From: Candidatus Nanoarchaeia archaeon
GTDB taxonomy: Archaea; Nanobdellota; Nanobdellia; Woesearchaeales; JANQNE01
Direction of reading: 5' to 3'
NCBI GenBank assembly: GCA_028279725.1
Contig: JANQNE010000011.1
Location: 25,872 to 89,871, forward strand
Length of the DNA: 64,000 nt
Shown here: positions 14,312-59,936 of the stretch, one piece after another
How the letters are laid out: each line of letters starts with the position of its first letter
Numbering within the stretch: the stretch's first letter is position 1
Made by a program: the position numbers and the translations under genes
Notes under the pieces: generated by a model
What the model was told of the DNA's origin: nothing
The model's input: the letters and a program-made list of their open reading frames with translations, nothing else
The model's database searches: none

Positions 14312-14342
14312 CTTTTTAAATAGAGAGTTCTTGTTTTGTCCT

Positions 14343-16424
14343 ATGTGTGGGATTATAGGGATATTTAACCATAAGGATGCTAAGAAGCTAGCTAAGAAGG
14401 GGCTGTCTAAGATATTATACAGGGGAAAGGACAGTAATGGCCTCTTTAGTTCTGAGAATTGCTGTATCGGACATTGCCTGCATTCTGTAGTTAATTTTGT
14501 TGAACAGCCTTTCAAAGGAAAAGGTGTGCTGATCGTAAATTGCGAGCTGTATAATTGGGAAGAGCTTAACGATAAATATAAGTTTAAGGCAAGGAATGAT
14601 TCTGAATTACTTTTTATGTTGTTGGAGAAGAAAGGAGTTTCAAAGATCAAAGAGATATTAGATGAGCTGGATGGTGTTTATTCTTTCTGCTATTGGATTG
14701 ATGATAAAGTTTATGTTGCGAGAGATATAATCGGTGTAAAGCCATTATGGTTCTCTAAGTATGAGCATCTTGGTTTTGCTTCTGAGAAAAAGGCATTGAA
14801 AGAGATAGGAATGTTTGATGCTGAGGAACTAAATCCCAGGAAGATATTAGTTTATGATGTGAAGAAGAATAAGGTTGAATTTATCGAGAGGGATTTTTTA
14901 AAGATAACACCTGAATTGAAGTGTAAATATGAAAAGATAAAGAAAGAGCTGACTGGGCTTGTTGTTAATTCTATCTCTAAAAGGATACCTGATCAGAAGT
15001 TTGGGATATTGTTTTCCGGAGGGATTGACTCTGGTCTGATCGCACATGCATGTAAAGAATTAGGTGTTGATTTTACATGCTATACTGCTGCTTTGAAAGA
15101 AAAAGGGATGGGAGAAGCAGAAGATATGGTCTATGCTAAGAAAGTTGCTGATAAATTAGGATTCAGGCTAAAGACAAAGACAATTTCTCTTAAAGAAACT
15201 GAAAAGTATCTGAAAAAAGTAGTTCCTTTGATAGAAGATTCCAATGTTGTTAAAGTTGGAGTGGGATTGACTTTCTATGTTGCATGTGAGATGGCTAAGA
15301 AAGATGGGATCAAAGTTATATTTTCCGGACTTGGATCTGAGGAGCTGTTTGCCGGCTATGAAAGGCATAGGAAAAGTGATCTGATAAACAAAGAATGCCT
15401 TTCTGGAGTCATTAAGATATATGAAAGGGATCTTTATAGGGATGATGTTATTGCGATGGCAAACAATCTTGAGCTTAGGCTTCCTTTTCTGGATAAGAAG
15501 CTTACTAGTTATGCACTGAAGATTCCTGCTAAATACAAGATAAAAGATGGGTTGACTAAAGTTGTTCTCCGTGATGTTGCTGTTGGTCTTGGTTATGATA
15601 AAGAATTTGCATCTAGAAGGAAGAAAGCTGCGCAGTATGGAAGCAAGTTTGACAGAGCGATAGCTAAACTTGCTAAGAGAAAAGGATTTAACCTTAAATC
15701 AGAATATTTGAGGACCTTTTATCCGGAAGTTAATCTTAAGCTAGGTGTGTTGTTCAGTTCTGGGAAAGACAGCTGCTATGCGATGCATGTTATGAAAAGA
15801 CAGAATTATGAGATAAGCTGCCTGATAACATTAAAGAGCAAAAATAAAGATTCTTATATGTTTCATACGCCTGCTATCGAGCTTGCTGAAGTGCAGGCGA
15901 AGGCGATGGAATTACCTATAATAGAACAGGAGACTGCAGGTGTTAAGGAAAAAGAGCTTGCTGATCTGAAGAAGGCATTAGCTGCTGCAAAGAAAGAGCA
16001 TAAGATAGAAGGTGTTGTGACCGGAGCATTATTTTCTAAATATCAGCGTGAAAGGATAGAGAAGGTTGCTGATAGTCTTGGGTTAAAGATATTTTCTCCT
16101 TTGTGGCATATGGATCAGGAGACTGAGCTTAAAAGTTTGGTGAGAGAAGGATTTGATGTTATTATCAGCTCTATAGCTGGTTATGGCATGGAAACAAAAG
16201 ATATAGGAAAGAGGATTGATGATAAGATGATCTCGAAATTGAGAAGGTTAAAAGATAAGATCGGGTTTAATGTAGCTGGAGAAGGCGGAGAGTTTGAGAG
16301 CTTTGTCCTTGATGGGCCTATGTTTAAGAAGAGATTGGAGATTGTTGATAGCCAGAGAGCTATAGAGAATGAATGTACTGGCAGGATGCTGATCAAGAAG
16401 ATTAAATTAGTCGACAAGAAATAG
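14343..16424 (+). CDS. fusion protein: glutamine-hydrolysing asparagine synthase-like (N) + diphthine-ammonia ligase Dph6/MJ0570-like PP-loop domain (C)
   Basis: Start set at MCGIIG (Ntn Cys2), with TATA ctttttaaata about 25 nt upstream. AsnB PP-loop ILFSGGIDSG. C-terminal LGVLFSSGKDSCYAM and VAGEGGEFESFVLDGPMF are Dph6 signatures. Confidence 0.75.
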   Translation: MCGIIGIFNHKDAKKLAKKGLSKILYRGKDSNGLFSSENCCIGHCLHSVVNFVEQPFKGKGVLIVNCELYNWEELNDKYKFKARNDSELLFMLLEKKGVSKIKEILDELDGVYSFCYWIDDKVYVARDIIGVKPLWFSKYEHLGFASEKKALKEIGMFDAEELNPRKILVYDVKKNKVEFIERDFLKITPELKCKYEKIKKELTGLVVNSISKRIPDQKFGILFSGGIDSGLIAHACKELGVDFTCYTAALKEKGMGEAEDMVYAKKVADKLGFRLKTKTISLKETEKYLKKVVPLIEDSNVVKVGVGLTFYVACEMAKKDGIKVIFSGLGSEELFAGYERHRKSDLINKECLSGVIKIYERDLYRDDVIAMANNLELRLPFLDKKLTSYALKIPAKYKIKDGLTKVVLRDVAVGLGYDKEFASRRKKAAQYGSKFDRAIAKLAKRKGFNLKSEYLRTFYPEVNLKLGVLFSSGKDSCYAMHVMKRQNYEISCLITLKSKNKDSYMFHTPAIELAEVQAKAMELPIIEQETAGVKEKELADLKKALAAAKKEHKIEGVVTGALFSKYQRERIEKVADSLGLKIFSPLWHMDQETELKSLVREGFDVIISSIAGYGMETKDIGKRIDDKMISKLRRLKDKIGFNVAGEGGEFESFVLDGPMFKKRLEIVDSQRAIENECTGRMLIKKIKLVDKK

Positions 16425-28169: not shown

Positions 28170-28738
28170 TATTTACACCTTATCACTCTTTTTTCGGTAA
28201 TTATCATATCCATCGGGATGTCATAATCTTCTGTTGGTATATTTTTTGTTATCTGTTCTTCAAATGCAAGCCCTATTTTTAGGGAGTTTCTGTCTTTCAG
28301 GAATCTGTCGTAAAAACCTTTTCCGAATCCTATCCTTGCTCCGCTTTGGTCAAAAGCGATGCCTGGGACGAGGACGATGTCCAGGTTTTCTTTGTATTCC
28401 TCTTTTTTGATTGGTTCGAGTACTCCGAAGTTCCCTTCTTTTAGGTCATTGAAGTCAGATAATTTTGATATCTTTATGTTGTTTTCTTCGACAAATGGGA
28501 TGATTACTGTCTTTTGCTGCAGTTGTTCTTTGATTAATTCTATTGTGTTTACCTCACTTTTTAGTGAAAGGTAAGACATCACTATGTTTGCTTTTTTGAA
28601 CTCATCCAGATCTTTTAGATGTTGGATGATTGTCTTGCTTTTTTCTGAGATCTGTTCTTCCGGTATGTTATCTCTTATGGACCTTATGGTGTTTCTGATC
28701 TCTTGTTTGTTTATTCTGTTCATAGTGCGATTCTTCAC
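28169..28738 (-). CDS. 5-formyltetrahydrofolate cyclo-ligase
   Basis: LVPGIAFDQSGARIGFGKGFYDRFL is the MTHFS signature. Confidence 0.8.
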   Translation of the reverse strand: MKNRTMNRINKQEIRNTIRSIRDNIPEEQISEKSKTIIQHLKDLDEFKKANIVMSYLSLKSEVNTIELIKEQLQQKTVIIPFVEENNIKISKLSDFNDLKEGNFGVLEPIKKEEYKENLDIVLVPGIAFDQSGARIGFGKGFYDRFLKDRNSLKIGLAFEEQITKNIPTEDYDIPMDMIITEKRVIRCK

Positions 28739-31404
28739 TTTTGCCTATCAAGCTCTTTTTTTGCAATATCTTTTCTAAAAAACATGCCGTCGAAGTTTAT
28801 GTCATTTATTTTTGTGTATGCTGTATCGACGGCATCTTTAAGGGTTGATCCTAATGTGATTACATTTAATACTCTTCCTCCATTTGTGAGGATCTTTCCG
28901 TTATCTTTCTTTGTTCCAGCGTGAATCACCTGTGCTCCACTTATGTTATCTAAACCTTTTATCTCTTTTCCCTTTTCATATGAACCAGGATAACCTCCTG
29001 ATGCTAGTACTATGCTTACGCAGTGTTTTTCAGACCAGTCTAGTTTCATAGCTCCTAGTTTCTTGTCTATTACTGCGTTCATTACGTCAAGTATATCATT
29101 GTTTAATCTTGGAAGGATAACCTGTGTTTCCGGATCTCCAAATCTGCAGTTGAATTCTAAGATCTTTAGGCCGTCTTTTGTTTTCATAAGTCCGACGTAG
29201 AGGACTCCTTTGTATTCTATGCCTTCTGCTTTTGTTCCAGCTATGAATGGCTTAATTATCTTTTCTTCCATCTCTTTTTCAAGTCCGTCTAATATTGGTG
29301 CTGGTGAGTAAGCTCCCATCCCTCCTGTATTAGGGCCTTTGTCTCCTTCATAGATTGGTTTGTGATCCTGTGAATATACCATTGGCTTGAATGTTTCTGA
29401 GTCTACGAAGACTAAGTAGGACCCTTCTTCACCTACAAGACATTCTTCTACAACTATTGATGAAGATGCATCTCCGAATTTGTTTGCTTTTAGGCATTCT
29501 TCTGCAAACTTTACTGCTTCTTCTACTGTGTTTGCGACAAGAACTCCTTTTCCAGCAGCTAGTCCGTCTGCTTTTACGACAATTGGTGCTCCCTGCTTTT
29601 CGATGTATGCTTTTGCTTTTTCAAAATCAGTGAATTCATCAAATTCAACTGTTGGAAGATTATATTTTTTCATGAATCTTCTTGCAAATGCTTTTGATCC
29701 TTCAAACTGTGATGCTTTTTTGTTAGGGCCGAAGACTCTTATCCCTGCTTTTTCAAGTTCGTCAGCTGCTCCGTTAACTAGCGGAGCTTCTGGACCTATG
29801 ATTGCAAGATCTATCTTCTTTTCTTTTGCAAACTTGACTAAAGCTTCATTATCATTTTGGTCGATATCATGACAGCAAGCTACCTGGCCAATACCTGGAT
29901 TTCCCGGGACTGCGTATAGTTTGTTTAATCTGTCAGATTCTGTGACTTTTAATGCAATAGCATGCTCTCTTCCGCCTGAACCAACTATCATTACGTTAAG
30001 TTTGGTGTCTAATGTTGTCTGCTCTTCTGTTCTCTGGCAACCAAGGCATTGCTGCTGTGATTCTGATACTGGTTCTGGGTATTCTCCTGTTAAACATGCC
30101 ATACATACATCCCTCCTTGTAGCATTCTTGATATTATCAACTGTTGCATATACTAAATTATCTGCTTCAAGATATTCTCTTATCTGTTCTATTGATTTAT
30201 CTGAAGCTATAAGCTCTTTTTTTGTCGCCATGTCTATCCCATAGAAGCATGGGAATTTTATAGGAGGACAAGCAGAAACAAATGTAACTTTTCTAACTCC
30301 TCCATCTTTTAATGTTCTTACTATCCTTTTTGATGTTGTTCCCCTTACAATGCTGTCATCAACTACAGCAACACTCTTGTTTTCAAGTATACTTATTACA
30401 GGCCTTAGTTTTCTTCTTACTGAGTCATGCCTTGTCTTTTGTGATGACATTATGAATGTTCTTTGTATATATTTATCTTTGATCAGACCTTCCCTATATT
30501 TTACAGCAAGATCTTCACTTAATTTTATAGCAGCTGTCCTTCCTGAATCTGGAACTGGGACTACAACATCGATGTCTTTTTGGTCCATCTGCTCGCTCAT
30601 CAGTTTTCCAAGAGCTAATCTTGTCTTGTATACTGATCTGTTCTCTATCATGCTGTTCGGGCTTGCAAAATATATCCATTCAAACATACAATGAGCTTTT
30701 TTCTCCTGTTTTAGGATCTTGCTTTCTATAACCAAGTCTTTTGAGATAAAAACAGCTTCTCCTGGCTCTATATCTCTGACATAATCATGATCAATAACCT
30801 GAAATGCTACAGTTTCTGAAGCAAATATGTATGAATCTCCTCTCTTTCCGAGAACTAAAGGCCTTATGCCTCTTGGATCTCTTATCGCGAATATACCTTT
30901 GTCTGCTATCATTCCAACAATTGAGTAAGCTCCTCTTACCTTATCCATGAAGTGCTTTGCAGCTGCAAAGAAATCTCCATGCTGTTCGTAATGCTCTGCG
31001 AATATTCTTAGAAGAACTTCACCGTCAACAGAGGTTTCAAGATGTTTTCCTTTTTTTTGGAATTCTTCTTTTAGGTCGAAGTAGTTTATTGTGTTTCCGT
31101 TCTGAGCCATAGCAACTTTTGGGTTGATCTTTGTTGTAAGAGGTTGTGCGTCGCACAACATTCCTTTTCCCTGTGTTGCATATCTTGTGTGGCCGATGCC
31201 CATCTTCCCTTGTAATAGGTTTGCGTCTCTTGCCTTGAATACTCTGTGAACAGCATCCATCTCTTTTTTTGTGAAGAATTCGTCTTTTACGTTTGTTACT
31301 ATGCCGCATGCATCCTGGCCTCTATGCTGCAATGACATCAAGCTAGTTACTGCATCCTCAAAAACTTCATCATCTTTTGAAACAATACCAATAATTCCGC
31401 ACAT
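28735..31404 (-). CDS. purF-purD: fusion protein: amidophosphoribosyltransferase PurF (N) + phosphoribosylamine-glycine ligase PurD (C), 889 aa
   Basis: N: MCGIIGIV, HTRYATQG, VDDSIVRGTT, CMACLTGEYP. C: VMIVGSGGREHAIA, VVKADGLAAGKGV, EFNCRFGDPE, TNGGRVL. Confidence 0.9.
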   Translation of the reverse strand: MCGIIGIVSKDDEVFEDAVTSLMSLQHRGQDACGIVTNVKDEFFTKKEMDAVHRVFKARDANLLQGKMGIGHTRYATQGKGMLCDAQPLTTKINPKVAMAQNGNTINYFDLKEEFQKKGKHLETSVDGEVLLRIFAEHYEQHGDFFAAAKHFMDKVRGAYSIVGMIADKGIFAIRDPRGIRPLVLGKRGDSYIFASETVAFQVIDHDYVRDIEPGEAVFISKDLVIESKILKQEKKAHCMFEWIYFASPNSMIENRSVYKTRLALGKLMSEQMDQKDIDVVVPVPDSGRTAAIKLSEDLAVKYREGLIKDKYIQRTFIMSSQKTRHDSVRRKLRPVISILENKSVAVVDDSIVRGTTSKRIVRTLKDGGVRKVTFVSACPPIKFPCFYGIDMATKKELIASDKSIEQIREYLEADNLVYATVDNIKNATRRDVCMACLTGEYPEPVSESQQQCLGCQRTEEQTTLDTKLNVMIVGSGGREHAIALKVTESDRLNKLYAVPGNPGIGQVACCHDIDQNDNEALVKFAKEKKIDLAIIGPEAPLVNGAADELEKAGIRVFGPNKKASQFEGSKAFARRFMKKYNLPTVEFDEFTDFEKAKAYIEKQGAPIVVKADGLAAGKGVLVANTVEEAVKFAEECLKANKFGDASSSIVVEECLVGEEGSYLVFVDSETFKPMVYSQDHKPIYEGDKGPNTGGMGAYSPAPILDGLEKEMEEKIIKPFIAGTKAEGIEYKGVLYVGLMKTKDGLKILEFNCRFGDPETQVILPRLNNDILDVMNAVIDKKLGAMKLDWSEKHCVSIVLASGGYPGSYEKGKEIKGLDNISGAQVIHAGTKKDNGKILTNGGRVLNVITLGSTLKDAVDTAYTKINDINFDGMFFRKDIAKKELDRQK

Positions 31405-40702: not shown

Positions 40703-41737
40703 ATGGAAAAGAGGGATAAGCTGAGGAAATTAGTCGAGGGGAAGAAGGTTTTTCTTGCAACACACTGGGATGCTGATGGTGTTACATCTGGAGCGTTAGT
40801 GTATCATCTGATAAAGCCATTTGCAAAAGAGATCGAAACTGTCTCTAAAGGAGAGACTTTTTTGGTGAACAAAGAAGATGTTAAAGGAGATCCTGATGTT
40901 ATAATCTGTACAGATATAAAGCCTGGAGATATAGACCATAAGAAGACGATATATATCGATCATCACCCATGGGATAAAGATGGAGTTGAGGAGAACGAAT
41001 ATCTTTATTGCATCTTTGACAAAGATATGCAGTCATGCTCTTTGCTGATATGGCATGAGCTATTGCAGGACACTACAAATCCATATTACATTTTTCTGAC
41101 ATTAGTCGGTTATTTTGGAGATGGAGGAAACAGAGAAGAGATCCCTGTTGAGCTGCAGATGCTGGCTGATAAATATCTTAAGCATCAGACAAGTGTAGGT
41201 GTTCATGATCTAATGGAGAAGAAAAATTCAAGATTCAGTGAAGGCTATTATTATGAGATAGAAAGATATGTATCTGCACTAAATACAGGAAAGAGGATGC
41301 ACTGGAGCGGAGATATTCCGTTTGAGCTTCTGAAAAATATCAGCAGCTATAAGCCATATATCTATAAGATGCATCCGATAGCTCAGCAGCTTAATGATTA
41401 CAGATATCAATTAAGAAATCATTATGATATGCAGATAAAACTCTTTGATAAGAAGAAGATACAGTATGCGATGATAGAGTCTGATAAAAATATACAAGGA
41501 GTTCTTTGTGCAAGATATCTCAAAGATAAGCCGATAATTGTCCTGAACAAAAGGAATGGAAGTATCATAGCTAGCATGAGAGTTCCTGATGATGTTGAAT
41601 TTGATGCTGGAGAATTTCTTGGACAGCTTAACGGAAAGATACCTTCTTTAGTTGGAGGAGGTCATGAGAAGGCTGCTGGTGTCACATTAAAAGAAGAAGA
41701 TCTGGATAAATTCTTGGATTTTTTAGATAATAGCTGA
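40703..41737 (+). CDS. DHH/DHHA1 family phosphoesterase (NrnA/RecJ-like)
   Basis: THWDADGVTSG, YIDHHPWD (DHH motif), GGGHEKAAGV (DHHA1 GGGH). Confidence 0.7.
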   Translation: MEKRDKLRKLVEGKKVFLATHWDADGVTSGALVYHLIKPFAKEIETVSKGETFLVNKEDVKGDPDVIICTDIKPGDIDHKKTIYIDHHPWDKDGVEENEYLYCIFDKDMQSCSLLIWHELLQDTTNPYYIFLTLVGYFGDGGNREEIPVELQMLADKYLKHQTSVGVHDLMEKKNSRFSEGYYYEIERYVSALNTGKRMHWSGDIPFELLKNISSYKPYIYKMHPIAQQLNDYRYQLRNHYDMQIKLFDKKKIQYAMIESDKNIQGVLCARYLKDKPIIVLNKRNGSIIASMRVPDDVEFDAGEFLGQLNGKIPSLVGGGHEKAAGVTLKEEDLDKFLDFLDNS

Positions 41738-41909
41738 TCAAGATATTGGGTTAATCATTTCTAAGTATACAACATATTGTATTATGCAATTCTGGATTTT
41801 ATATAAATTATATATAAACTACTCAGGAGTAGCAATAAAAACGAAACTTTTATAAATGGTTGGAGCCTTATAGAGCTTGATTTAGCTAGTTTGGGGTATA
41901 AACTGAAAA

Positions 41910-44900
41910 ATGAAGGATTTAAGCAGATATCTAGATAAATTTAGAGGCGATTCTGTTAGGTTAGATAGACCTAGCCTTGATGATGATATCCGGACTATAG
42001 TATTCAATTATGAGCCTTTTGTTCTTGATTGGAAAAATTTTAGGAAACTGGAAAGAGATACTGAAAGAGAAGCAGAAGAAGTCTATAAGCAAAGAGCTCT
42101 GAATGGAGACACCTATACTGATATTGAAAAACAGTTTAAAGATGACCCAAAAGGAAGATATGATGCTACGAAAGATAGAGACTGGGTTGAAGGAAAGGTA
42201 AAAGCGTTCAGGCCGGAGATAAAAAGAGCTCTTGAGAGCAAATCAATAATAGGTATTAGACCTGACCAGGAAGATCTTGAGTCTATCTGTATGGATAGGA
42301 ACATCACTTTAGTTGGAAAAGAAGTTGTAGGTATTAATTCTGAATTTATGGTGGGAAATGACATCATACTTTTGGAGACCGAAGTATATGAAAAGGTCTG
42401 TGAGAGGCTAAAAGAAAGCGATGATAAATCAAAAGAGAATGCAGTAGCTACAATCAAGGAAGTTATTGAAGAAGAACTTACTAAAGAGAAACCAAAACTG
42501 CTGATAGTTGATAATGAAATGGGAGAAAGATTGAGGATGACTGAAATAGCTCTAAAATGCGGGTTTAGCACTCGAATAGCTGAAAATCCAGAACAGGCAT
42601 TTCAGATGCTTGAAAAAGAAAAAGACATTGGTACGATAATAACAGGTGATATATTTCCTGGAACTAATGGGCTTGATTTCATAATGGAGCTTAGAAAGAG
42701 AGGAGGAGAACAGCATGCAATACTTGTATCAGATGAGCAGTTCATAGAAAAGGAATATGAAGGAAAAAACCATAAAGAACTGCTTCAGGCAAATGTGAGA
42801 GTTATTGAGAAAGGAGGAAATACAGATCCAGAGATAAGAAGTGAATTTCTTAATGCTAAAGGTAAGATGGATCTTATGGCTGAGAAGACAGATGTACGTA
42901 TAGAGGAGAAAGATTCAAAGATACCAACCTTTGCAGATTTTGAGAATAAGATAAGAGATTACAACAGCAATTCTGGAAAGCTTATAATGCTTGATTCGAA
43001 TGATATCAATGAAGTTATTACATCATTCAAGAGCAAGTTTAAAACACCCGAAGATTATATCACACTTTCAACTTTGAATAATGAAGATATGAAATACATA
43101 TTGACTGTTCCACGTATACTTAAGATTGAAGAGAATGGTGTGGAAGATAAAGCTATCGACCATATGATGGATGTTTTGGATCCTGAGGAAAGAAATCTAG
43201 GAAATGTTCTTGGAAAATTCTATGAAAAGATAAAAGAAGGATGGACTGGAGAAGATGTACAGGAGCTGCTTCGTTCAATCCTACGAAAAGAAGATGTAGG
43301 AGAATCTATCAAGAGTATTTACAGAAATAGAAAGGGTATGGATGATGAAGTAGTCATTGAAAGGAATATGAGAGAAGGTTCTGATTTTAGAACTTCTATA
43401 TTTTTCAGCTATAAGAATGCAGGAAGAGTGGCTGAAAGATACAATCATTATAGTGAGGATAAAAGGATAAAGTATAATCTTGGAATTACAACAGAAAGAG
43501 TAAGCTGGGTTGCAAAGAACAATGCACTGCTTGCCAGGTATCTTGAGATGTTTGGTGCTGCAAAAGGGAAAGTTGAACATGACAGTCTTGTCAATATAAT
43601 AAATCAGGACAGAAAGGATGATGTTGTGAGCATCAAGGAATCAAAGATTACAGTAGATTCAAAATATCATGTTTACGAAGTTACATCAACTTATGGAGAA
43701 AATGAAAAAAGACACAGCATAGTAAAATTCATAACTAATCCAGATTCATTTGAAAGGGAAGTCTATAACTATAATTATTTCAAGAGATTTGACGGAATAA
43801 ATGATGCGAATAGTCTGGTAACTACAACAGTGGAGGATGAAGAAGGAAACAAGAATTATGTTGTTGTACTTAATTTTAAGGAAGGAGTGGAGCCTAGACA
43901 GAATCTTATGACTACTTTTGAAAATATAAGAGAGAGTATCAAGACAGGAGGAGATGATGTTAAGAAAGAGCTTAATGATAAGGCAAATAAAGTAGGGATA
44001 CAGGCTATGTCTGATGTAGGAAGAGTACATGGTGTTGCTCCTGAACTAAAAGGAGATACATACACTTCATTCTATGGTGATTTTAAAAAATACCTTCATT
44101 TCAGGATAGGAGAGTTCCAAGATAATCTTACTGACCTTGTAAAACAGCTTGCTACTGAATTTAAAGATCATATACAAAAGAACTCATCAAGAGTTAAATC
44201 AAACTCTTATTCACTTGTTGAATATCTAGCAAGCATGGATACAACTTTCTATAAGGATACTGTAACAAAGAACATGACTCCTATGGGGGAGGAAGGAGGG
44301 AAGAACTCAGGCAGGTTTGCATCAGTTGATTATGGAGAAGTCAGAAAACTTCCACTGACTTTTGATGTTGCAAATGCAGTACATACTATGTACATACCTG
44401 ATATCAGGGTTGCTGAGGAAGATGGAACAATAGATCAGATGCTGATATCCTATCTTAGTGGATATTGTGAAGGAAGAACATCGTACAATAATGAAGTTAT
44501 GAAGAAGAAAAATGTAAAAAAATATCTTGTAGATAATCTTGAAAGGATGAGAAAAGGGACAGGAAATGAAAGTGTAAGGGAGAATCTATCTGATCTTCTT
44601 AAGATAATAAAGAAGGAAGAGCCAAAACATAAGAGCAGGAAAAAGAAGATGGCATTTTATAAGGATATCATGTCTGGATTTGCTGAGTCAAGCGGATCAG
44701 ATGAGTTAAAAAGAGTTGTAGCGAATGAGATCAAATATTTTGATGAAATAGAAGATAAACCTGACCCATATTTTGGGAAGCTTAAGATCAGGACAAGCAC
44801 TGCGAAAGGAAGAAGAAACAAAAGATATGAGATCATAAGCGATAAATTAAAAGGACCAAGAGATAGGTGGTCAACTAAATTGAATGATGCGTTCGAAAGA

Positions 44901-45212
44901 TTCAAAGCAGATTTCTATGTAAGTATGGCATACAGAGGACAGGTTATAGCAAATACTGTTCCAGTCTATATATTATCAGATCATAATATCAACAAGCAGA
45001 GGAGGGATTATTTTTCATCTGTTATGGGAAATACTACTCAAGCATTAGAGATACTTAGTGAGAAATATATCGGAAAAGAAAAAGGAATGTACTTAAGGAG
45101 AGAGCTAGATGGCGATAAGCTTAATGAAGTTAAGAATGCACTTTCAGATATCAGGAATATATTTGAAAAGATAGATCCGGGGGCTGTTAAGAATGCCGAA
45201 TACAAAGCTTGA
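41910..45212 (+). CDS. 1100-aa multidomain protein: unknown N-terminus, receiver (REC) domain, possible protein-kinase-like/APH-like domain, unknown C-terminus
   Basis: REC: KLLIVDNEMGER...IGTIITGDIFPGTNGLDFIMELRK...HAILVSD. Kinase-like: HSIVKFITNPDSFEREVYNY, VVVLNFKEG, FYKDTVTKN (HxDxxxxN-like), ASVDYGE (DFG-like). Confidence 0.6.
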   Translation: MKDLSRYLDKFRGDSVRLDRPSLDDDIRTIVFNYEPFVLDWKNFRKLERDTEREAEEVYKQRALNGDTYTDIEKQFKDDPKGRYDATKDRDWVEGKVKAFRPEIKRALESKSIIGIRPDQEDLESICMDRNITLVGKEVVGINSEFMVGNDIILLETEVYEKVCERLKESDDKSKENAVATIKEVIEEELTKEKPKLLIVDNEMGERLRMTEIALKCGFSTRIAENPEQAFQMLEKEKDIGTIITGDIFPGTNGLDFIMELRKRGGEQHAILVSDEQFIEKEYEGKNHKELLQANVRVIEKGGNTDPEIRSEFLNAKGKMDLMAEKTDVRIEEKDSKIPTFADFENKIRDYNSNSGKLIMLDSNDINEVITSFKSKFKTPEDYITLSTLNNEDMKYILTVPRILKIEENGVEDKAIDHMMDVLDPEERNLGNVLGKFYEKIKEGWTGEDVQELLRSILRKEDVGESIKSIYRNRKGMDDEVVIERNMREGSDFRTSIFFSYKNAGRVAERYNHYSEDKRIKYNLGITTERVSWVAKNNALLARYLEMFGAAKGKVEHDSLVNIINQDRKDDVVSIKESKITVDSKYHVYEVTSTYGENEKRHSIVKFITNPDSFEREVYNYNYFKRFDGINDANSLVTTTVEDEEGNKNYVVVLNFKEGVEPRQNLMTTFENIRESIKTGGDDVKKELNDKANKVGIQAMSDVGRVHGVAPELKGDTYTSFYGDFKKYLHFRIGEFQDNLTDLVKQLATEFKDHIQKNSSRVKSNSYSLVEYLASMDTTFYKDTVTKNMTPMGEEGGKNSGRFASVDYGEVRKLPLTFDVANAVHTMYIPDIRVAEEDGTIDQMLISYLSGYCEGRTSYNNEVMKKKNVKKYLVDNLERMRKGTGNESVRENLSDLLKIIKKEEPKHKSRKKKMAFYKDIMSGFAESSGSDELKRVVANEIKYFDEIEDKPDPYFGKLKIRTSTAKGRRNKRYEIISDKLKGPRDRWSTKLNDAFERFKADFYVSMAYRGQVIANTVPVYILSDHNINKQRRDYFSSVMGNTTQALEILSEKYIGKEKGMYLRRELDGDKLNEVKNALSDIRNIFEKIDPGAVKNAEYKA

Positions 45213-46617
45213 TAGTCCCAGTATAGATCTTCACCTGCACAGCGGTTTTTCTGTCGATAATGAAAATATCTCTCCTGAGGAATGGGCTGAATTTATCTAT
45301 AAAGTAAAGGAGAGCAGGCTTCCTGGACTGAAAGGGATAGCCTTGACTGACCATAACAACATGGTAGGAGTTGAGCCTAATCTTGATGCACTTAGAAAGC
45401 TAGAGAGAAGGAAAGGAGTTGAGCCTTTAGAGTTTATCCCCGGTGTTGAATGCGCTCTTGAGCATGAGAATGTTTCTGCACATATAATTGCTTATTTTGT
45501 ACCTGGCGAAAATGAGAAGATAGAAGATGCACTGCACAGGGCAACGCAGATAAATCCGCTTCTTGAGATAATCAATACTGAATTTACGAGAAGAAAATAC
45601 GGAGTTCTTGCTCTGGAGACAGCTAATGCACATATGAGAAATAAGCTAGGAGATGCTTTTGAACACCCTATCACTATAAAAGAGATGGATGCTGTGATGA
45701 GAGAAGAGCTTCCTGTTTATGAGCTTGACAACTGGATATTCAAGCCAACCTATGAAGATGGAAGTATGACAAAGAACAGGATAACTGAGCTTAACCACAG
45801 GCAGCTTGAGAAGCTTCTTTGCGGGAATCATGAATCAGGAGATATAAAAAGGAATTGGGTAGATCCAAAAGAGGCTGAGATATTGGTAAAAAGAGGAGGA
45901 GTACTCTATCCTGAAAATTTTCCAGGCTACAGTGTACTCAAAGGGATAGAGCAGATACATGAAGCAGGAGCTTTTGCAAGCTTTGCGCATCCTCAGCTTA
46001 CAATAAGGAGCCTTTGTGAAAAAAAATTAGGAAATAAGATAAAAGATGAAGGAGTTAAAGGTGGTTTGAAGCTTGATAGGGTAAAAGATATACAGATTAA
46101 GTATTCAGCTCTGGATGAGACTCTTGTAGAGTTCCAGGATTTTTTAGAGAAAGAGATGATACCAAGAGGGCTGAATGCTATCGAGCTGACAAACCATTAT
46201 TCATATCTTATGGCTGAGTTTGCATATATGACTATAAGTCTTTTGATGTTTGTTGATAATTATAACAGAAGAAATCCTAACAACAGGCTGTATGTAACTG
46301 GAGGATCTGATTTTCATAAGCCGGTAGGAAACAGAAACATAGGAACAGTAAACACAATGTGTGAGAAAGGTGTCCAGCAGCTTATCGAGATATACAGCAA
46401 GATGGACAGCGGCAGCAGGCCAAGATTTGATGAAGGGACAATAAAACAGCTTCATGAGATAATCATGACAGGAACAAGAGATATCTATACAACAGATAAC
46501 AGTGCAAATGAGTTCACCAGAGTCATACCTTACTATCAGCTAACAAGGATGAAAGAGGCAGAAAAAGATCCAAAATCAGGACTTTATCTGCTTCCAGGTT
46601 CAGTCAAGAGTGAGTGA
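45193..46617 (+). CDS. PHP-domain metal-dependent phosphoesterase with large insertions
   Basis: IDLHLHSGFS, ALTDHNNM, ECALEH...AHIIAYF, SFAHPQ, ELTNHY, TGGSDFHK. Overlaps the upstream gene by 20 nt. Confidence 0.7.
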   Translation: MPNTKLDSPSIDLHLHSGFSVDNENISPEEWAEFIYKVKESRLPGLKGIALTDHNNMVGVEPNLDALRKLERRKGVEPLEFIPGVECALEHENVSAHIIAYFVPGENEKIEDALHRATQINPLLEIINTEFTRRKYGVLALETANAHMRNKLGDAFEHPITIKEMDAVMREELPVYELDNWIFKPTYEDGSMTKNRITELNHRQLEKLLCGNHESGDIKRNWVDPKEAEILVKRGGVLYPENFPGYSVLKGIEQIHEAGAFASFAHPQLTIRSLCEKKLGNKIKDEGVKGGLKLDRVKDIQIKYSALDETLVEFQDFLEKEMIPRGLNAIELTNHYSYLMAEFAYMTISLLMFVDNYNRRNPNNRLYVTGGSDFHKPVGNRNIGTVNTMCEKGVQQLIEIYSKMDSGSRPRFDEGTIKQLHEIIMTGTRDIYTTDNSANEFTRVIPYYQLTRMKEAEKDPKSGLYLLPGSVKSE

Positions 46618-47523
46618 GATCGTCGATCCCAGCACATCATTTATCCTTTGGGCGATATTTCCAAGATATTCAAGAAGGACTATCTCTTTATCGTTCTTGT
46701 TCTTGTACAGGTCTCTTATCTTTTTTTCTACTTTCTGCCTTACTTCATTTATAGCGACTAACTTATCTTTGTCTCCGCTGTAGAATGCTTTGTAGAATTC
46801 AGAGAACATTCCGTTAACATCATTGTATAGAGTAACTGCTTCTTTGCTTATCTTTGTCTTTGCATCTGCATTTTTTGACAAGAATTCTGCAAGATGGTAG
46901 TATTCATCTCCTATACTTTCGATAGACCAGACGATCACATACATGAATGTTGTCTTCTTATAATCTTTGAAGCCTTTTGTGTTAAGGATCCTTTCACAGA
47001 AGTTTGTAAGCTTGTTAACTGTTACCTCTAAAACTTTTATATCTTTTAGTTTTTCAAAATTATTATTTTTTATAGCTTCAAAGCTGCTTTCAGCCATAGA
47101 CTGTATGACCAAAAATACTCTTCTTAATGTAGGGTCAAATTCGCTTTCAAGATCCTGTGATAAGTTTCTGACTAGGCATCTGTTTCCAGACTGCTCTATG
47201 ATCGCATAGCCCATAAGACCTTCCTGGATAGTTGACTGGATTATCTCCAATATCTTAGGATCTGTGAATTTTATCTCAACTTCGTCGTAGCCGCTTTTAT
47301 GGACAGCGAACAATGACCATCTTACTAAGTGAGGATTTAGGTTAGAAACATCTAATGAGATCTTTTTCATCTCGATCCCTTTTGGAGTTGTGATAGTAAG
47401 ATTACTTCCTTCTTCCTTTATATCTAGCTCATCTCCTTTCTTTATGTTGTGTTTTTGAGCCCATTTTCTAGGCAAGGATACTAGCTGTGTACTGTCTGCG
47501 ATCTGTATAACTTTTCTTTTCAT
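46600..47523 (-). CDS. AbrB/SpoVT-domain + PhoU-domain regulator (archaeal phosphate-uptake-regulator type)
   Basis: N-terminal IQIADSTQLVSLPRKWAQKHNIKKGDELDI (AbrB swapped-hairpin) followed by a helical PhoU-like repeat region. Confidence 0.65.
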   Translation of the reverse strand: MKRKVIQIADSTQLVSLPRKWAQKHNIKKGDELDIKEEGSNLTITTPKGIEMKKISLDVSNLNPHLVRWSLFAVHKSGYDEVEIKFTDPKILEIIQSTIQEGLMGYAIIEQSGNRCLVRNLSQDLESEFDPTLRRVFLVIQSMAESSFEAIKNNNFEKLKDIKVLEVTVNKLTNFCERILNTKGFKDYKKTTFMYVIVWSIESIGDEYYHLAEFLSKNADAKTKISKEAVTLYNDVNGMFSEFYKAFYSGDKDKLVAINEVRQKVEKKIRDLYKNKNDKEIVLLEYLGNIAQRINDVLGSTISLTLD

Positions 47524-47676: not shown

Positions 47677-47826
47677 ATGGAGATACCTGATGACTGGAAT
47701 GAAGAAAATGAAGATACCATCTATTCAGAGGATGGAAGAGAAAGTTTAGTAGATAGTGAAGCTATGACACCAGAAGAAGCTGCATTTATGCAGGGTTATA
47801 GTGAAGCTGAAGAAGAGCTTGAATAA
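47677..47826 (+). CDS. small acidic protein, paralog 1 (49 aa)
   Basis: TATA tttataaaa and SD AGGAGGG upstream. MEIPDDWNEENEDTIYSEDGRESLVDSEAMTPEEAAFMQGYSEAEEELE. Below the ORF-track cutoff. Confidence 0.6.
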   Translation: MEIPDDWNEENEDTIYSEDGRESLVDSEAMTPEEAAFMQGYSEAEEELE

Positions 47827-47942: not shown

Positions 47943-48092
47943 ATGAAAATAATAAAATCAAATTGGATAGATGAGTTAGAGGGTGAGAACTTAAGCGTTT
48001 ATTCTGAAGACGGCAGAGATATGCTTGTAGACGATGATGAGATGACATTAGAGGAAGCTGGCTTTATGCAAGGCTGGGATGAAGCAGGTTAA
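47943..48092 (+). CDS. small acidic protein, paralog 2 (49 aa)
   Basis: SD GGGGTGGGG upstream. MKIIKSNWIDELEGENLSVYSEDGRDMLVDDDEMTLEEAGFMQGWDEAG. Confidence 0.6.
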   Translation: MKIIKSNWIDELEGENLSVYSEDGRDMLVDDDEMTLEEAGFMQGWDEAG

Positions 48093-48585: not shown

Positions 48586-48759
48586 ATGAGAGATGATTAT
48601 AAGGAAGAGATTGAGGAAGAGAATGTATATAGTGAAGGCGGTAGAGAGAGCAATCTAGATGATGATGAGATATCGGGCAGTGAAGAAGCATTTATGCGTG
48701 GATATGATGATGCTGAAGAGTATGATGACGGAGATTACTCTGAAAGCGAAGAAGAATAA
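48586..48759 (+). CDS. small acidic protein, paralog 4 (57 aa)
   Basis: SD AGAGGGTGA upstream. MRDDYKEEIEEENVYSEGGRESNLDDDEISGSEEAFMRGYDDAEEYDDGDYSESEEE. Confidence 0.6.
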   Translation: MRDDYKEEIEEENVYSEGGRESNLDDDEISGSEEAFMRGYDDAEEYDDGDYSESEEE

Positions 48760-59834: not shown

Positions 59835-59936
59835 GGGCCTATAGTCTAATGGATAGAACAACCGGCTTCGGTAAGTGGGGTCAAAAGCTTCGCTTGTGGG
59901 TACCGGTTAGTGGGGGTTCGAATCCTCCTAGGCCCA
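59835..59936 (+). tRNA. tRNA-Arg (anticodon TCG) with a 30-nt intron at the canonical 37/38 position; no encoded CCA
   Basis: Acceptor GGGCCTA:TAGGCCC (7 bp), anticodon stem ACCGG:CCGGT, loop C-T-TCG-G-[intron 59872-59901]-A, T arm GGGGG-TTCGAAT-CCTCC, discriminator A. The mature length is 72 nt. The D stem has one mismatch. Confidence 0.8.

Follow-up and report, generated by a model that had tools for sequence, protein, structure and literature searches.

What does a protein of 1100 residues do when its middle recalls a receiver domain, its second half recalls a kinase, and its gene runs directly into that of a PHP phosphoesterase? The question is raised by one locus in a 64,000-nt stretch of DNA (hereafter the window), taken from contig JANQNE010000011.1 of assembly GCA_028279725.1 (positions 25,872 to 89,871, forward strand). 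An earlier note on this DNA, written from the letters alone, had described the locus as a possible signalling module built from a receiver-kinase protein and a PHP partner. The open reading frames (ORFs) that it named, the 20-nt overlap between them, the convergent AbrB-PhoU gene and the quoted motifs were all recovered in their places by the ORF listing and a motif check. The genes are arranged as follows.

41910..45212, + strand: giant ORF, 1100 aa (ORF listing)
45193..46617, + strand: PHP phosphoesterase, 474 aa (ORF listing; Pfam PHP)
45193..45212, + strand: 20-nt overlap of the giant and PHP ORFs, between the PHP ATG at 45193 and the giant-ORF TGA at 45210-45212
46600..47523, − strand: AbrB/SpoVT(MazE)-PhoU regulator, 307 aa (ORF listing; Pfam MazE_antitoxin and PhoU)

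A conserved trio of genes

Word-indexed homologue searches, whether with the giant protein or with a later family alignment, returned only the protein itself. An exhaustive search of 1.84 billion cluster representatives recovered seven proteins that match outside the receiver domain (P0016-P0019 and P0021-P0023), all of them to residues ~396-1100 and none with a Pfam domain. Two trace to Methanosarcinales metagenome-assembled genomes (MAGs). The family proteins measure 690-810 aa, compared to 1100 aa in the window. The family is very rare, with about eight members, and comes only from uncultured organisms. The loci that encode these relatives are listed here with the window protein as the reference for identity.

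L001/L002, Logan assemblies: kinase fragment, 42% identity; PHP, 49% identity, after a 1-nt gap; AbrB-PhoU convergent, 72% identity
L005, Methanosarcinales MAG: kinase, 753 aa; PHP, 427 aa, 4-nt overlap; AbrB-PhoU, 305 aa, convergent
L008/L009, JGI: kinase, 811 aa; PHP, 459 aa; AbrB-PhoU, 305 aa, convergent
L011, JGI: kinase, 776 aa; PHP, 421 aa, 4-nt overlap; AbrB-PhoU, 306 aa, convergent
L012, JGI: kinase, 686 aa; PHP, 456 aa; AbrB-PhoU, convergent fragment
L013, ENA: kinase fragment; PHP start follows; contig ends before the regulator position

With the window counted, a PHP gene lies directly 3' of the kinase gene in all seven loci, and a convergent AbrB-PhoU gene follows in each of the six that extend far enough. 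The spacing of kinase and PHP genes at the other loci ranges from −4 to +2 nt, so the tight coupling of this pair, for which the earlier note had asked that related genomes be surveyed, holds at every related locus. Orthologues of the regulator occupy the same position in L001, L005, L009 and L011 and are 48-72% identical to the window copy, whereas the kinases share 20-42% and the PHP proteins 23-49% with theirs; the L012 regulator is a 97-aa 3' fragment (28% identity over 85 aa). The outer flanks vary among loci and include eIF2-gamma, LeuA-like and DHH genes as well as small ORFs. That the trio is so strictly kept while its proteins have diverged to as little as 20-25% identity points to a function in common. 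It also indicates that the three genes are real rather than chance ORFs, as homologues of each occur in the same order on independent contigs. Neither of two canonical bacterial TrpH-type PHP genes that were checked has a kinase or AbrB-PhoU gene adjacent to it, and their contexts are unrelated.

The receiver domain and the first 375 residues of the giant protein were absent from all seven relatives in the exhaustive search, although in the window receiver and kinase core lie in one unbroken reading frame. This indicates that, in the lineage of the window alone, an orphan N-terminus and a receiver domain have been fused onto a family protein. As the receiver is missing from the relatives while kinase, PHP and AbrB-PhoU are constant, the conserved unit is that trio, and the pairing of a receiver-kinase with a PHP protein, which the earlier note had put forward as the unit, was not borne out. 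The trio appears native to its genome, since the G+C content of its genes (0.35-0.40) resembles the window average (0.366) and the neighbours are housekeeping genes of archaeal character (purine biosynthesis, class I lysyl-tRNA synthetase, diphthamide synthase, arginyl-tRNA synthetase-like genes and an intron-containing tRNA).

In the window, the ATG at 45193 is the sole start codon of the PHP ORF ahead of its HxH motif, and a GGGGG run at 45180-45184 lies 9-13 nt 5' of it. The PHP and regulator genes overlap by 18 nt at their 3' ends. Upstream of the giant ORF, direct reading of the DNA gave one further element; a sigma-70 promoter scan is inapplicable to archaea.

41795..41862, + strand: AT-rich intergenic stretch, candidate archaeal promoter of the two-gene operon

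TATA-box-like elements in this region (TTTATATAAATTATATATAA and CTTTTATAAAT) stand 50-110 nt 5' of the giant ORF, suggesting that the kinase-PHP pair probably has a promoter of its own.

Several irregular loci were seen during this survey. An apparently short, 350-aa version of the kinase in L002 (P0016) was rejected as an assembly chimera, in which a Nextera adapter, CTCGGAGATGTGTATAAGAGACAG, at positions 1-110 is joined to unrelated DNA. The kinase gene is split in L006 (2953-5256; 216 and 481 aa) and in L012 (973-3199; 61 and 686 aa), and these splits could be frameshifts, assembly errors or pseudogenes. On contig L003 (897-3849), a PHP variant of 502 aa with an N-terminal extension and insertions of its own (P0005) adjoins a divergent AbrB-PhoU homologue, 28% identical to that of the window. 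The recovered part of this contig holds no kinase gene, and the link between PHP and AbrB-PhoU may therefore be older than the kinase.

A small conserved ORF of 147-187 aa was also observed just upstream of the kinase gene at four loci (L005 7349-7912, L006 2348-2833, L008 195-644 and L012 424-867), two of which are Methanosarcinales MAGs. Neither the window nor L011 contains this ORF, which carries the motif EW..LS..ERAFAVLR..GEL.YDP, has no Pfam match and may represent a further, fourth gene of the module. That it might be the counterpart of the N-terminal extension in the window was considered and rejected, as both BLAST and hhalign were negative.

The kinase-like core and its PHP partner

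Family alignments, structure prediction and profile searches divide the giant protein into six regions, all on the + strand.

41910..42485, + strand: residues 1-192, orphan N-terminal region; no homologue or domain detected
42486..42854, + strand: residues 193-315, degenerate receiver (CheY-like) domain; Pfam, PDB, exhaustive search and CheY alignment
42855..43094, + strand: residues 316-395, linker; no homologues in the exhaustive search
43095..43619, + strand: residues 396-570, family-wide helical N-terminal domain with GWxGxD at 444-449; family alignments
43620..44519, + strand: residues 571-870, predicted protein-kinase-like core of APH/choline-kinase type; AlphaFold2 fold and family alignment
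44520..45212, + strand: residues 871-1100, C-terminal helical domain; family alignments

Scans of the giant protein with Pfam, NCBIfam and PADLOC found no kinase or defence family, and its sole Pfam match was a sub-threshold receiver domain at residues 198-276. In the linker, PAS_10 scored below its cutoff (E 0.003, 18.6 bits against 22.1). The motifs of the earlier note map to VDNE 200-203, TGDIFPG 245-251, IVKF 604-607, VVLNFKEG 652-659, YKDTVTKN 781-788 and VDYGE 806-810.

A single-sequence AlphaFold2 (AF2) prediction of all 1100 residues reached a mean predicted local distance difference test (pLDDT) of 34 and gave no usable model of the receiver or the N-terminus. With an eight-sequence family alignment, however, residues 376-1100 were modelled at pLDDT 74.6 and a predicted template modelling score of 0.73. 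The predicted core runs through three strands, a helix, two strands, further helices, a short strand at FYKD and a low-confidence loop, followed by a very confident C-terminal helical domain. Together with a Foldseek search, the model reveals a bilobal kinase fold in which an N-lobe β sheet with its αC helix precedes a helical C-lobe. The best Foldseek E value is weak (4.7e-3), but kinase-fold proteins make up all but one of the 50 matches listed, and the closest are small-molecule kinases rather than eukaryote-type protein kinases. A fold search of the model against the BFVD viral library gave nothing meaningful. The kinase-like or APH fold suggested by the earlier note thus gains support from the model, and the motifs it quoted for this region coincide with residues conserved in the family.

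Conservation of the catalytic residues was counted in an L-INS-i alignment, among the six to eight members whose sequences cover each site. Lys606 (IVKF; 43725-43727) and Glu617 (ExEV; 43758-43760) do not vary in any full-length member and map to a predicted strand and a predicted helix, at the β3 and αC positions. Asp783 (44256-44258) and Asn788 (44271-44273) are likewise invariant, in a [FY]-x-D-x-x-x-[KR]-N pattern that keeps the D-to-N spacing of a kinase catalytic loop. Asp807 (44328-44330), in the context [VI]-D-[YRL], is conserved here, although its column varies in the MAFFT alignment A9. It is followed by an FDxAN motif (FDVAN, 818-822) with an invariant Asn822. His707 is conserved except for a Tyr in one member. 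The retention of Lys, Glu, Asp, Asn and Asp among proteins only 20-25% identical is a pattern typical of active enzymes, and judging from these residues the core is probably active.

The helical domains on either side of the core are modelled unequally. The N-terminal one consists of AF2 helices at pLDDT 50-87. The C-terminal one is the best-conserved part of the family, with the motif ADxYVSMxYR(A/G)xxIANTVPxY at 1000-1020; its pLDDT is mostly 82-93 and lower at residues ~951-980 and in the final five. Foldseek gave no informative fold match for it.

The closest known system for the core is the group of APH, choline-kinase and homoserine-kinase-II phosphotransferases (Pfam APH PF01636 and relatives; e.g. 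the corramycin phosphotransferase 8agy). Compared to these enzymes, the window core has no detectable sequence similarity, carries Tyr or Phe in place of the His of HxD, and has a Lys at D+4. The loop from the catalytic Asn to the Mg-binding Asp ranges from ~15 to 80 residues within the family, and two extra helical domains of ~175 aa (N-terminal) and ~230 aa (C-terminal) are present. When the core was compared by hhalign to NPTII, APH(3')-Ia and Hph (approximate sequences), the αE ‘LH’ and the HGD/YKD loops aligned in register. As modelled, the core is a new and highly divergent family of the kinase-like superfamily, nearest in shape to small-molecule kinases.

The PHP partner is assigned by Pfam (PF02811, 32.1 bits against a threshold of 26.4). 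Aligned with canonical TrpH-type enzymes, and with codons checked in the DNA, it retains the full set of nine metal ligands: H14, H16, D53, H54, E86, H97, H266, D373 and H375. These are kept in all partner PHPs, save for a Glu in place of D53 in L008. The metal motifs and large insertions that the earlier note saw in this protein are therefore both evident in the alignments. A helical insertion domain between motifs III and IV aligns with P0004, P0006, P0007 and P0012, with extra inserts in the window protein. The nearest NCBIfam families are all weak: the TrlF PHP domain (40.7 against a threshold of 350), 3',5'-nucleoside bisphosphate phosphatase (33.2 against 400) and RNase RNM (30.5 against 375).

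The protein thus resembles TrpH/YciV (RNase AM) and 3',5'-nucleoside bisphosphate phosphatase in its PHP barrel motifs, its nine ligands and its TrpH-type insertion domain, but its NCBIfam scores are about one-tenth of the family thresholds. It further differs from them in three additional insertions and a C-terminal extension of 60-90 aa ending in GLYLLP, features common to the PHPs of the window, L001, L005, L008 and L012. Canonical TrpH genes also differ in context, the two checked being unlinked to a kinase or AbrB-PhoU gene. By these aligned features, the kinase-linked PHPs are a subgroup of their own, a TrpH-like variant. We also see that the variable extension closes with a (G/D)LY(L/P)(L/T) tail in the window (residues ~460-470; GLYLLP), L005, L008 and L012, and this tail could be a docking peptide.

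The third protein matches both of its domains above threshold, MazE_antitoxin at 35.6 bits (threshold 24.7) and PhoU at 30.5 bits (threshold 23.5). It thus shares with archaeal AbrB(SpoVT)-PhoU transcription regulators an N-terminal swapped-hairpin AbrB/SpoVT domain joined to a PhoU domain. This orthologue group differs from the others in its fixed position, convergent and 3'-overlapping, beside the kinase-PHP pair. PhoU-family regulators are reported to rank among the larger families of transcription factors in Pyrococcus furiosus (PMC6316755).

The receiver domain

The earlier note had called the middle of the giant protein a plausible receiver, with an acidic pocket at VDNE and a phospho-acceptor context. 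Homology to receivers is well supported. The exhaustive search returned 31 REC proteins at E<=1e-3 (best 1.9e-8), covering residues ~170-306 and mostly 190-290, and PDB profiles matched Spo0F and HupR at E ~2e-4. The Pfam Response_reg match, by contrast, remains below threshold (E 3.4e-5; 24.4 bits against 30.2).

The details of the active site, for which codons were checked in the DNA, are less favourable. Aligning the domain against CheY and the closest standalone receivers pairs CheY D12 and D13 with D201 and N202, such that the DD pocket reads DN. The earlier note had named a degenerate receiver lacking the Asp pocket as evidence against its proposal, and this is what VDNE turns out to be. 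Its acceptor context is off register by one residue: the column of the CheY D57 acceptor holds Gly246, and Asp247 comes one position later. Asp247 lies three residues before the conserved Pro250, whereas the acceptor Asp lies four before it in CheY, Spo0F and the standalone REC matches. Gly occupied the acceptor column in two of three alignments and Asp247 in none. P0028, among the most similar receivers, has no Asp whatever at the acceptor site. The Ser/Thr position of CheY T87 is kept as Ser274, and CheY K109 probably corresponds to Lys301 (IEKGG), where the alignment is gapped.

Searching the 64-kb window by tblastn with 18 REC-containing proteins for a histidine kinase matched the REC region alone; several of these queries are of histidine-kinase length, with their domain content unchecked, and a distant partner outside the window is possible.

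The domain therefore shares with other receivers, pseudo- and atypical ones included, a homology that runs from β1 to α5 as well as the Ser/Thr and the probable Lys, but differs in its DN pocket, in the Gly of the acceptor column with Asp at +1, in its sub-threshold Pfam score and in having no histidine kinase nearby. On the strength of these comparisons we regard it as a true REC homologue that is degenerate or atypical. Instead of working as a canonical two-component receiver, it probably serves in regulation or interaction, either independently of phosphorylation or in some atypical manner.

Possible functions of the module and its surroundings

We hold it somewhat better than an even chance that the locus encodes a three-gene archaeal module, in which a kinase and a coupled PHP enzyme set the phosphorylation state of a small, probably nucleotide-like molecule in the company of an AbrB-PhoU regulator. 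The first gene would specify a large cytoplasmic phosphotransferase with a bilobal core of APH/choline-kinase type (~571-870) and retained catalytic residues. The two family-specific helical domains flanking the core most likely form a substrate or partner site, and the substrate would be held between the kinase C-lobe and the conserved C-terminal helical domain. The kinase would transfer phosphate from ATP or GTP to a hydroxyl of the molecule, and the translationally coupled PHP enzyme, TrpH-like and with a complete trinuclear metal site, would hydrolyse a phosphoester bond of that molecule or of its product; together the pair would set its phosphorylation state. The AbrB-PhoU protein, a DNA-binding regulator, may tie expression to phosphate or metal status. 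In the window genome only, the kinase would have gained 375 further residues at its N-terminus, a degenerate receiver domain among them. A small nucleotide-like substrate is favoured on two grounds: the core has small-molecule kinases as its structural neighbours, and the TrpH type to which the PHP belongs acts on nucleotides. For the same two features, the emphasis that the earlier note had placed on signalling finds no support here.

A number of points weigh against this proposal. The catalytic-loop His of HxDxxxxN is replaced by Tyr or Phe in the family alignment. Asp807 and the 788-809 loop have pLDDT <50, making the active-site geometry the low-confidence part of the model. Pfam gave no match at E<=10 for six core sequences, PDB profile searches with alignments A2 and A9 found no kinase, and the hhalign comparison to the three APH sequences returned a probability of 0.3%. 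Because none of the sequence methods connects the core with kinases, the fold assignment depends on one AF2 model built from a shallow alignment. If the kinase and the phosphoesterase do share a single molecule as substrate, they would run a futile cycle in the absence of regulation. With about eight members, the conserved gene order could partly reflect shared ancestry, though kinase identity drops to 20-25%. Lastly, protein signalling would explain just as well why the kinase is fused to a REC domain and has a transcription factor as its neighbour.

That last point leads to the foremost alternative, a protein-phosphorylation switch in which the kinase acts on a protein such as AbrB-PhoU, the PHP enzyme is the cognate protein phosphatase and the receiver is an input. 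The nearest conceptual precedent is found in Gram-positive bacteria, where the PHP-type protein-tyrosine phosphatase CpsB/YwqE is paired with a BY-kinase; there, as proposed here, a PHP phosphoesterase is encoded beside a kinase and works against it. However, that pair combines a Walker-motif BY-kinase with a short CpsB PHP, whereas the archaeal pair combines an APH fold with a TrpH-like PHP. The window PHP aligns with the TrpH type, insertion domain included, and not with the short CpsB type, the top structural neighbours of the core are not eukaryote-type protein kinases, and there is no phosphosite evidence. We consider such a switch unlikely, if still worth keeping in mind. Slightly less probable again is its more specific form, a phospho-signalling device of a new kind, in which the APH-fold kinase and PHP phosphatase would reversibly modify a protein, most plausibly AbrB-PhoU, and so control transcription, with the atypical receiver as an upstream input added in this genome.

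A canonical two-component output, with an unlinked histidine kinase phosphorylating Asp247 and so switching the kinase domain, can draw on the significant REC homology (E down to 1.9e-8), on the retained Ser274 and probable Lys301, and on the Asp beside the acceptor column. It is made improbable by the Asn202 that replaces the second pocket Asp, by the Gly246 that leaves Asp247 one residue nearer to Pro250, by a similar receiver (P0028) without Asp at this site, by the lack of a histidine kinase in the 64-kb window, and by the absence of the receiver from every relative.

There is only a slight chance that the module processes RNA ends, with the kinase phosphorylating RNA or oligonucleotides at a 5'-OH, after which the PHP enzyme would degrade or trim the 5'-monophosphate RNA 5' to 3' in the manner of E. 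coli RNase AM. Eukaryotic Grc3-Rat1 is an analogue of such a pairing of 5'-kinase and 5'-3' exonuclease. To our knowledge, though, polynucleotide kinases are P-loop enzymes and not APH-fold. RNase RNM and 3',5'-nucleoside bisphosphate phosphatase are among the closest named PHP families, but at scores far under their thresholds, and the RecJ/NrnA-like DHH/DHHA1 gene immediately upstream in the window is not kept at other loci. RNase AM is a TrpH-family 5'-3' exoribonuclease (PMC7261194).

Hardly more credible is a catalytically dead scaffold (a pseudokinase), or another chemistry such as AMPylation, on the kinase fold: the replaced catalytic His, the lack of a glycine-rich loop and the poorly modelled Asp807 segment would fit, but Lys, Glu, Asp, Asn and Asp are all kept among members 20-25% identical. 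A toxin-antitoxin or defence module, with a HipA-like kinase toxin and an AbrB/MazE-type antitoxin, is the least credible of all, even though HipA toxins are kinase-fold proteins and the regulator matches the MazE_antitoxin domain.

The folds and chemistry of the module lie within known superfamilies (protein-kinase-like, PHP, REC and AbrB-PhoU). What we judge to be new is a kinase family without a Pfam or NCBIfam profile and its fixed partnership with a variant PHP and AbrB-PhoU. Our literature searches found no description of a kinase-PHP-AbrB-PhoU module, and we know of no described operon that joins a kinase, a TrpH-like PHP and AbrB-PhoU. The kinase fold was missed by Pfam, NCBIfam and PDB profile searches and was revealed by the structure model alone, a case that shows enzymatic content in archaeal MAGs still overlooked by sequence annotation. 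The trio also offers a tangible way into two archaeal groups that are poorly understood, the AbrB-PhoU regulators and the PHP enzymes, and the REC fusion is one natural example of such a module joined to a signalling domain. The significance is limited by the rarity of the family (about eight members) and by its exclusively uncultured sources.

The genes around the trio are of some interest in their own right. The DHH/DHHA1 gene (RecJ/NrnA-like, 344 aa, 40703-41737, + strand) stops 172 nt short of the giant ORF. Its family covers nanoRNases and pAp phosphatases and so overlaps functionally with TrpH-type PHP enzymes; this neighbour is not conserved at other kinase loci. On the far side, a 1.4-kb stretch without any ORF of at least 80 aa separates the AbrB-PhoU gene from the gene that follows. 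It contains three small acidic paralogous ORFs of 49, 49 and 57 aa (47677-47826, 47943-48092 and 48586-48759, + strand), and among these lie two further ORFs, one of 48 aa and one of 79 aa with a coiled coil. The three paralogues have no Pfam match and share the motif YSE(D/G)GR..(L)(V)DD.E(M/I)(T/S).EEA.FM(Q/R)G(Y/W), which was found at none of the related loci.

Farther away, Rfam detected a tRNA (51.6 bits) at 59835-59936 (+ strand) that ARAGORN did not report. At 102 nt it is long enough to suggest an intron, in keeping with an archaeal genome. Two unusual fusions of housekeeping genes were also seen. One (28735-31404, − strand, 889 aa) joins an amidophosphoribosyltransferase-like protein (GATase and PRTase) to GAR synthetase, and the other (14331-16424, + strand, 697 aa) joins an asparagine-synthase-like protein to a diphthamide synthase (Diphthami_syn_2).

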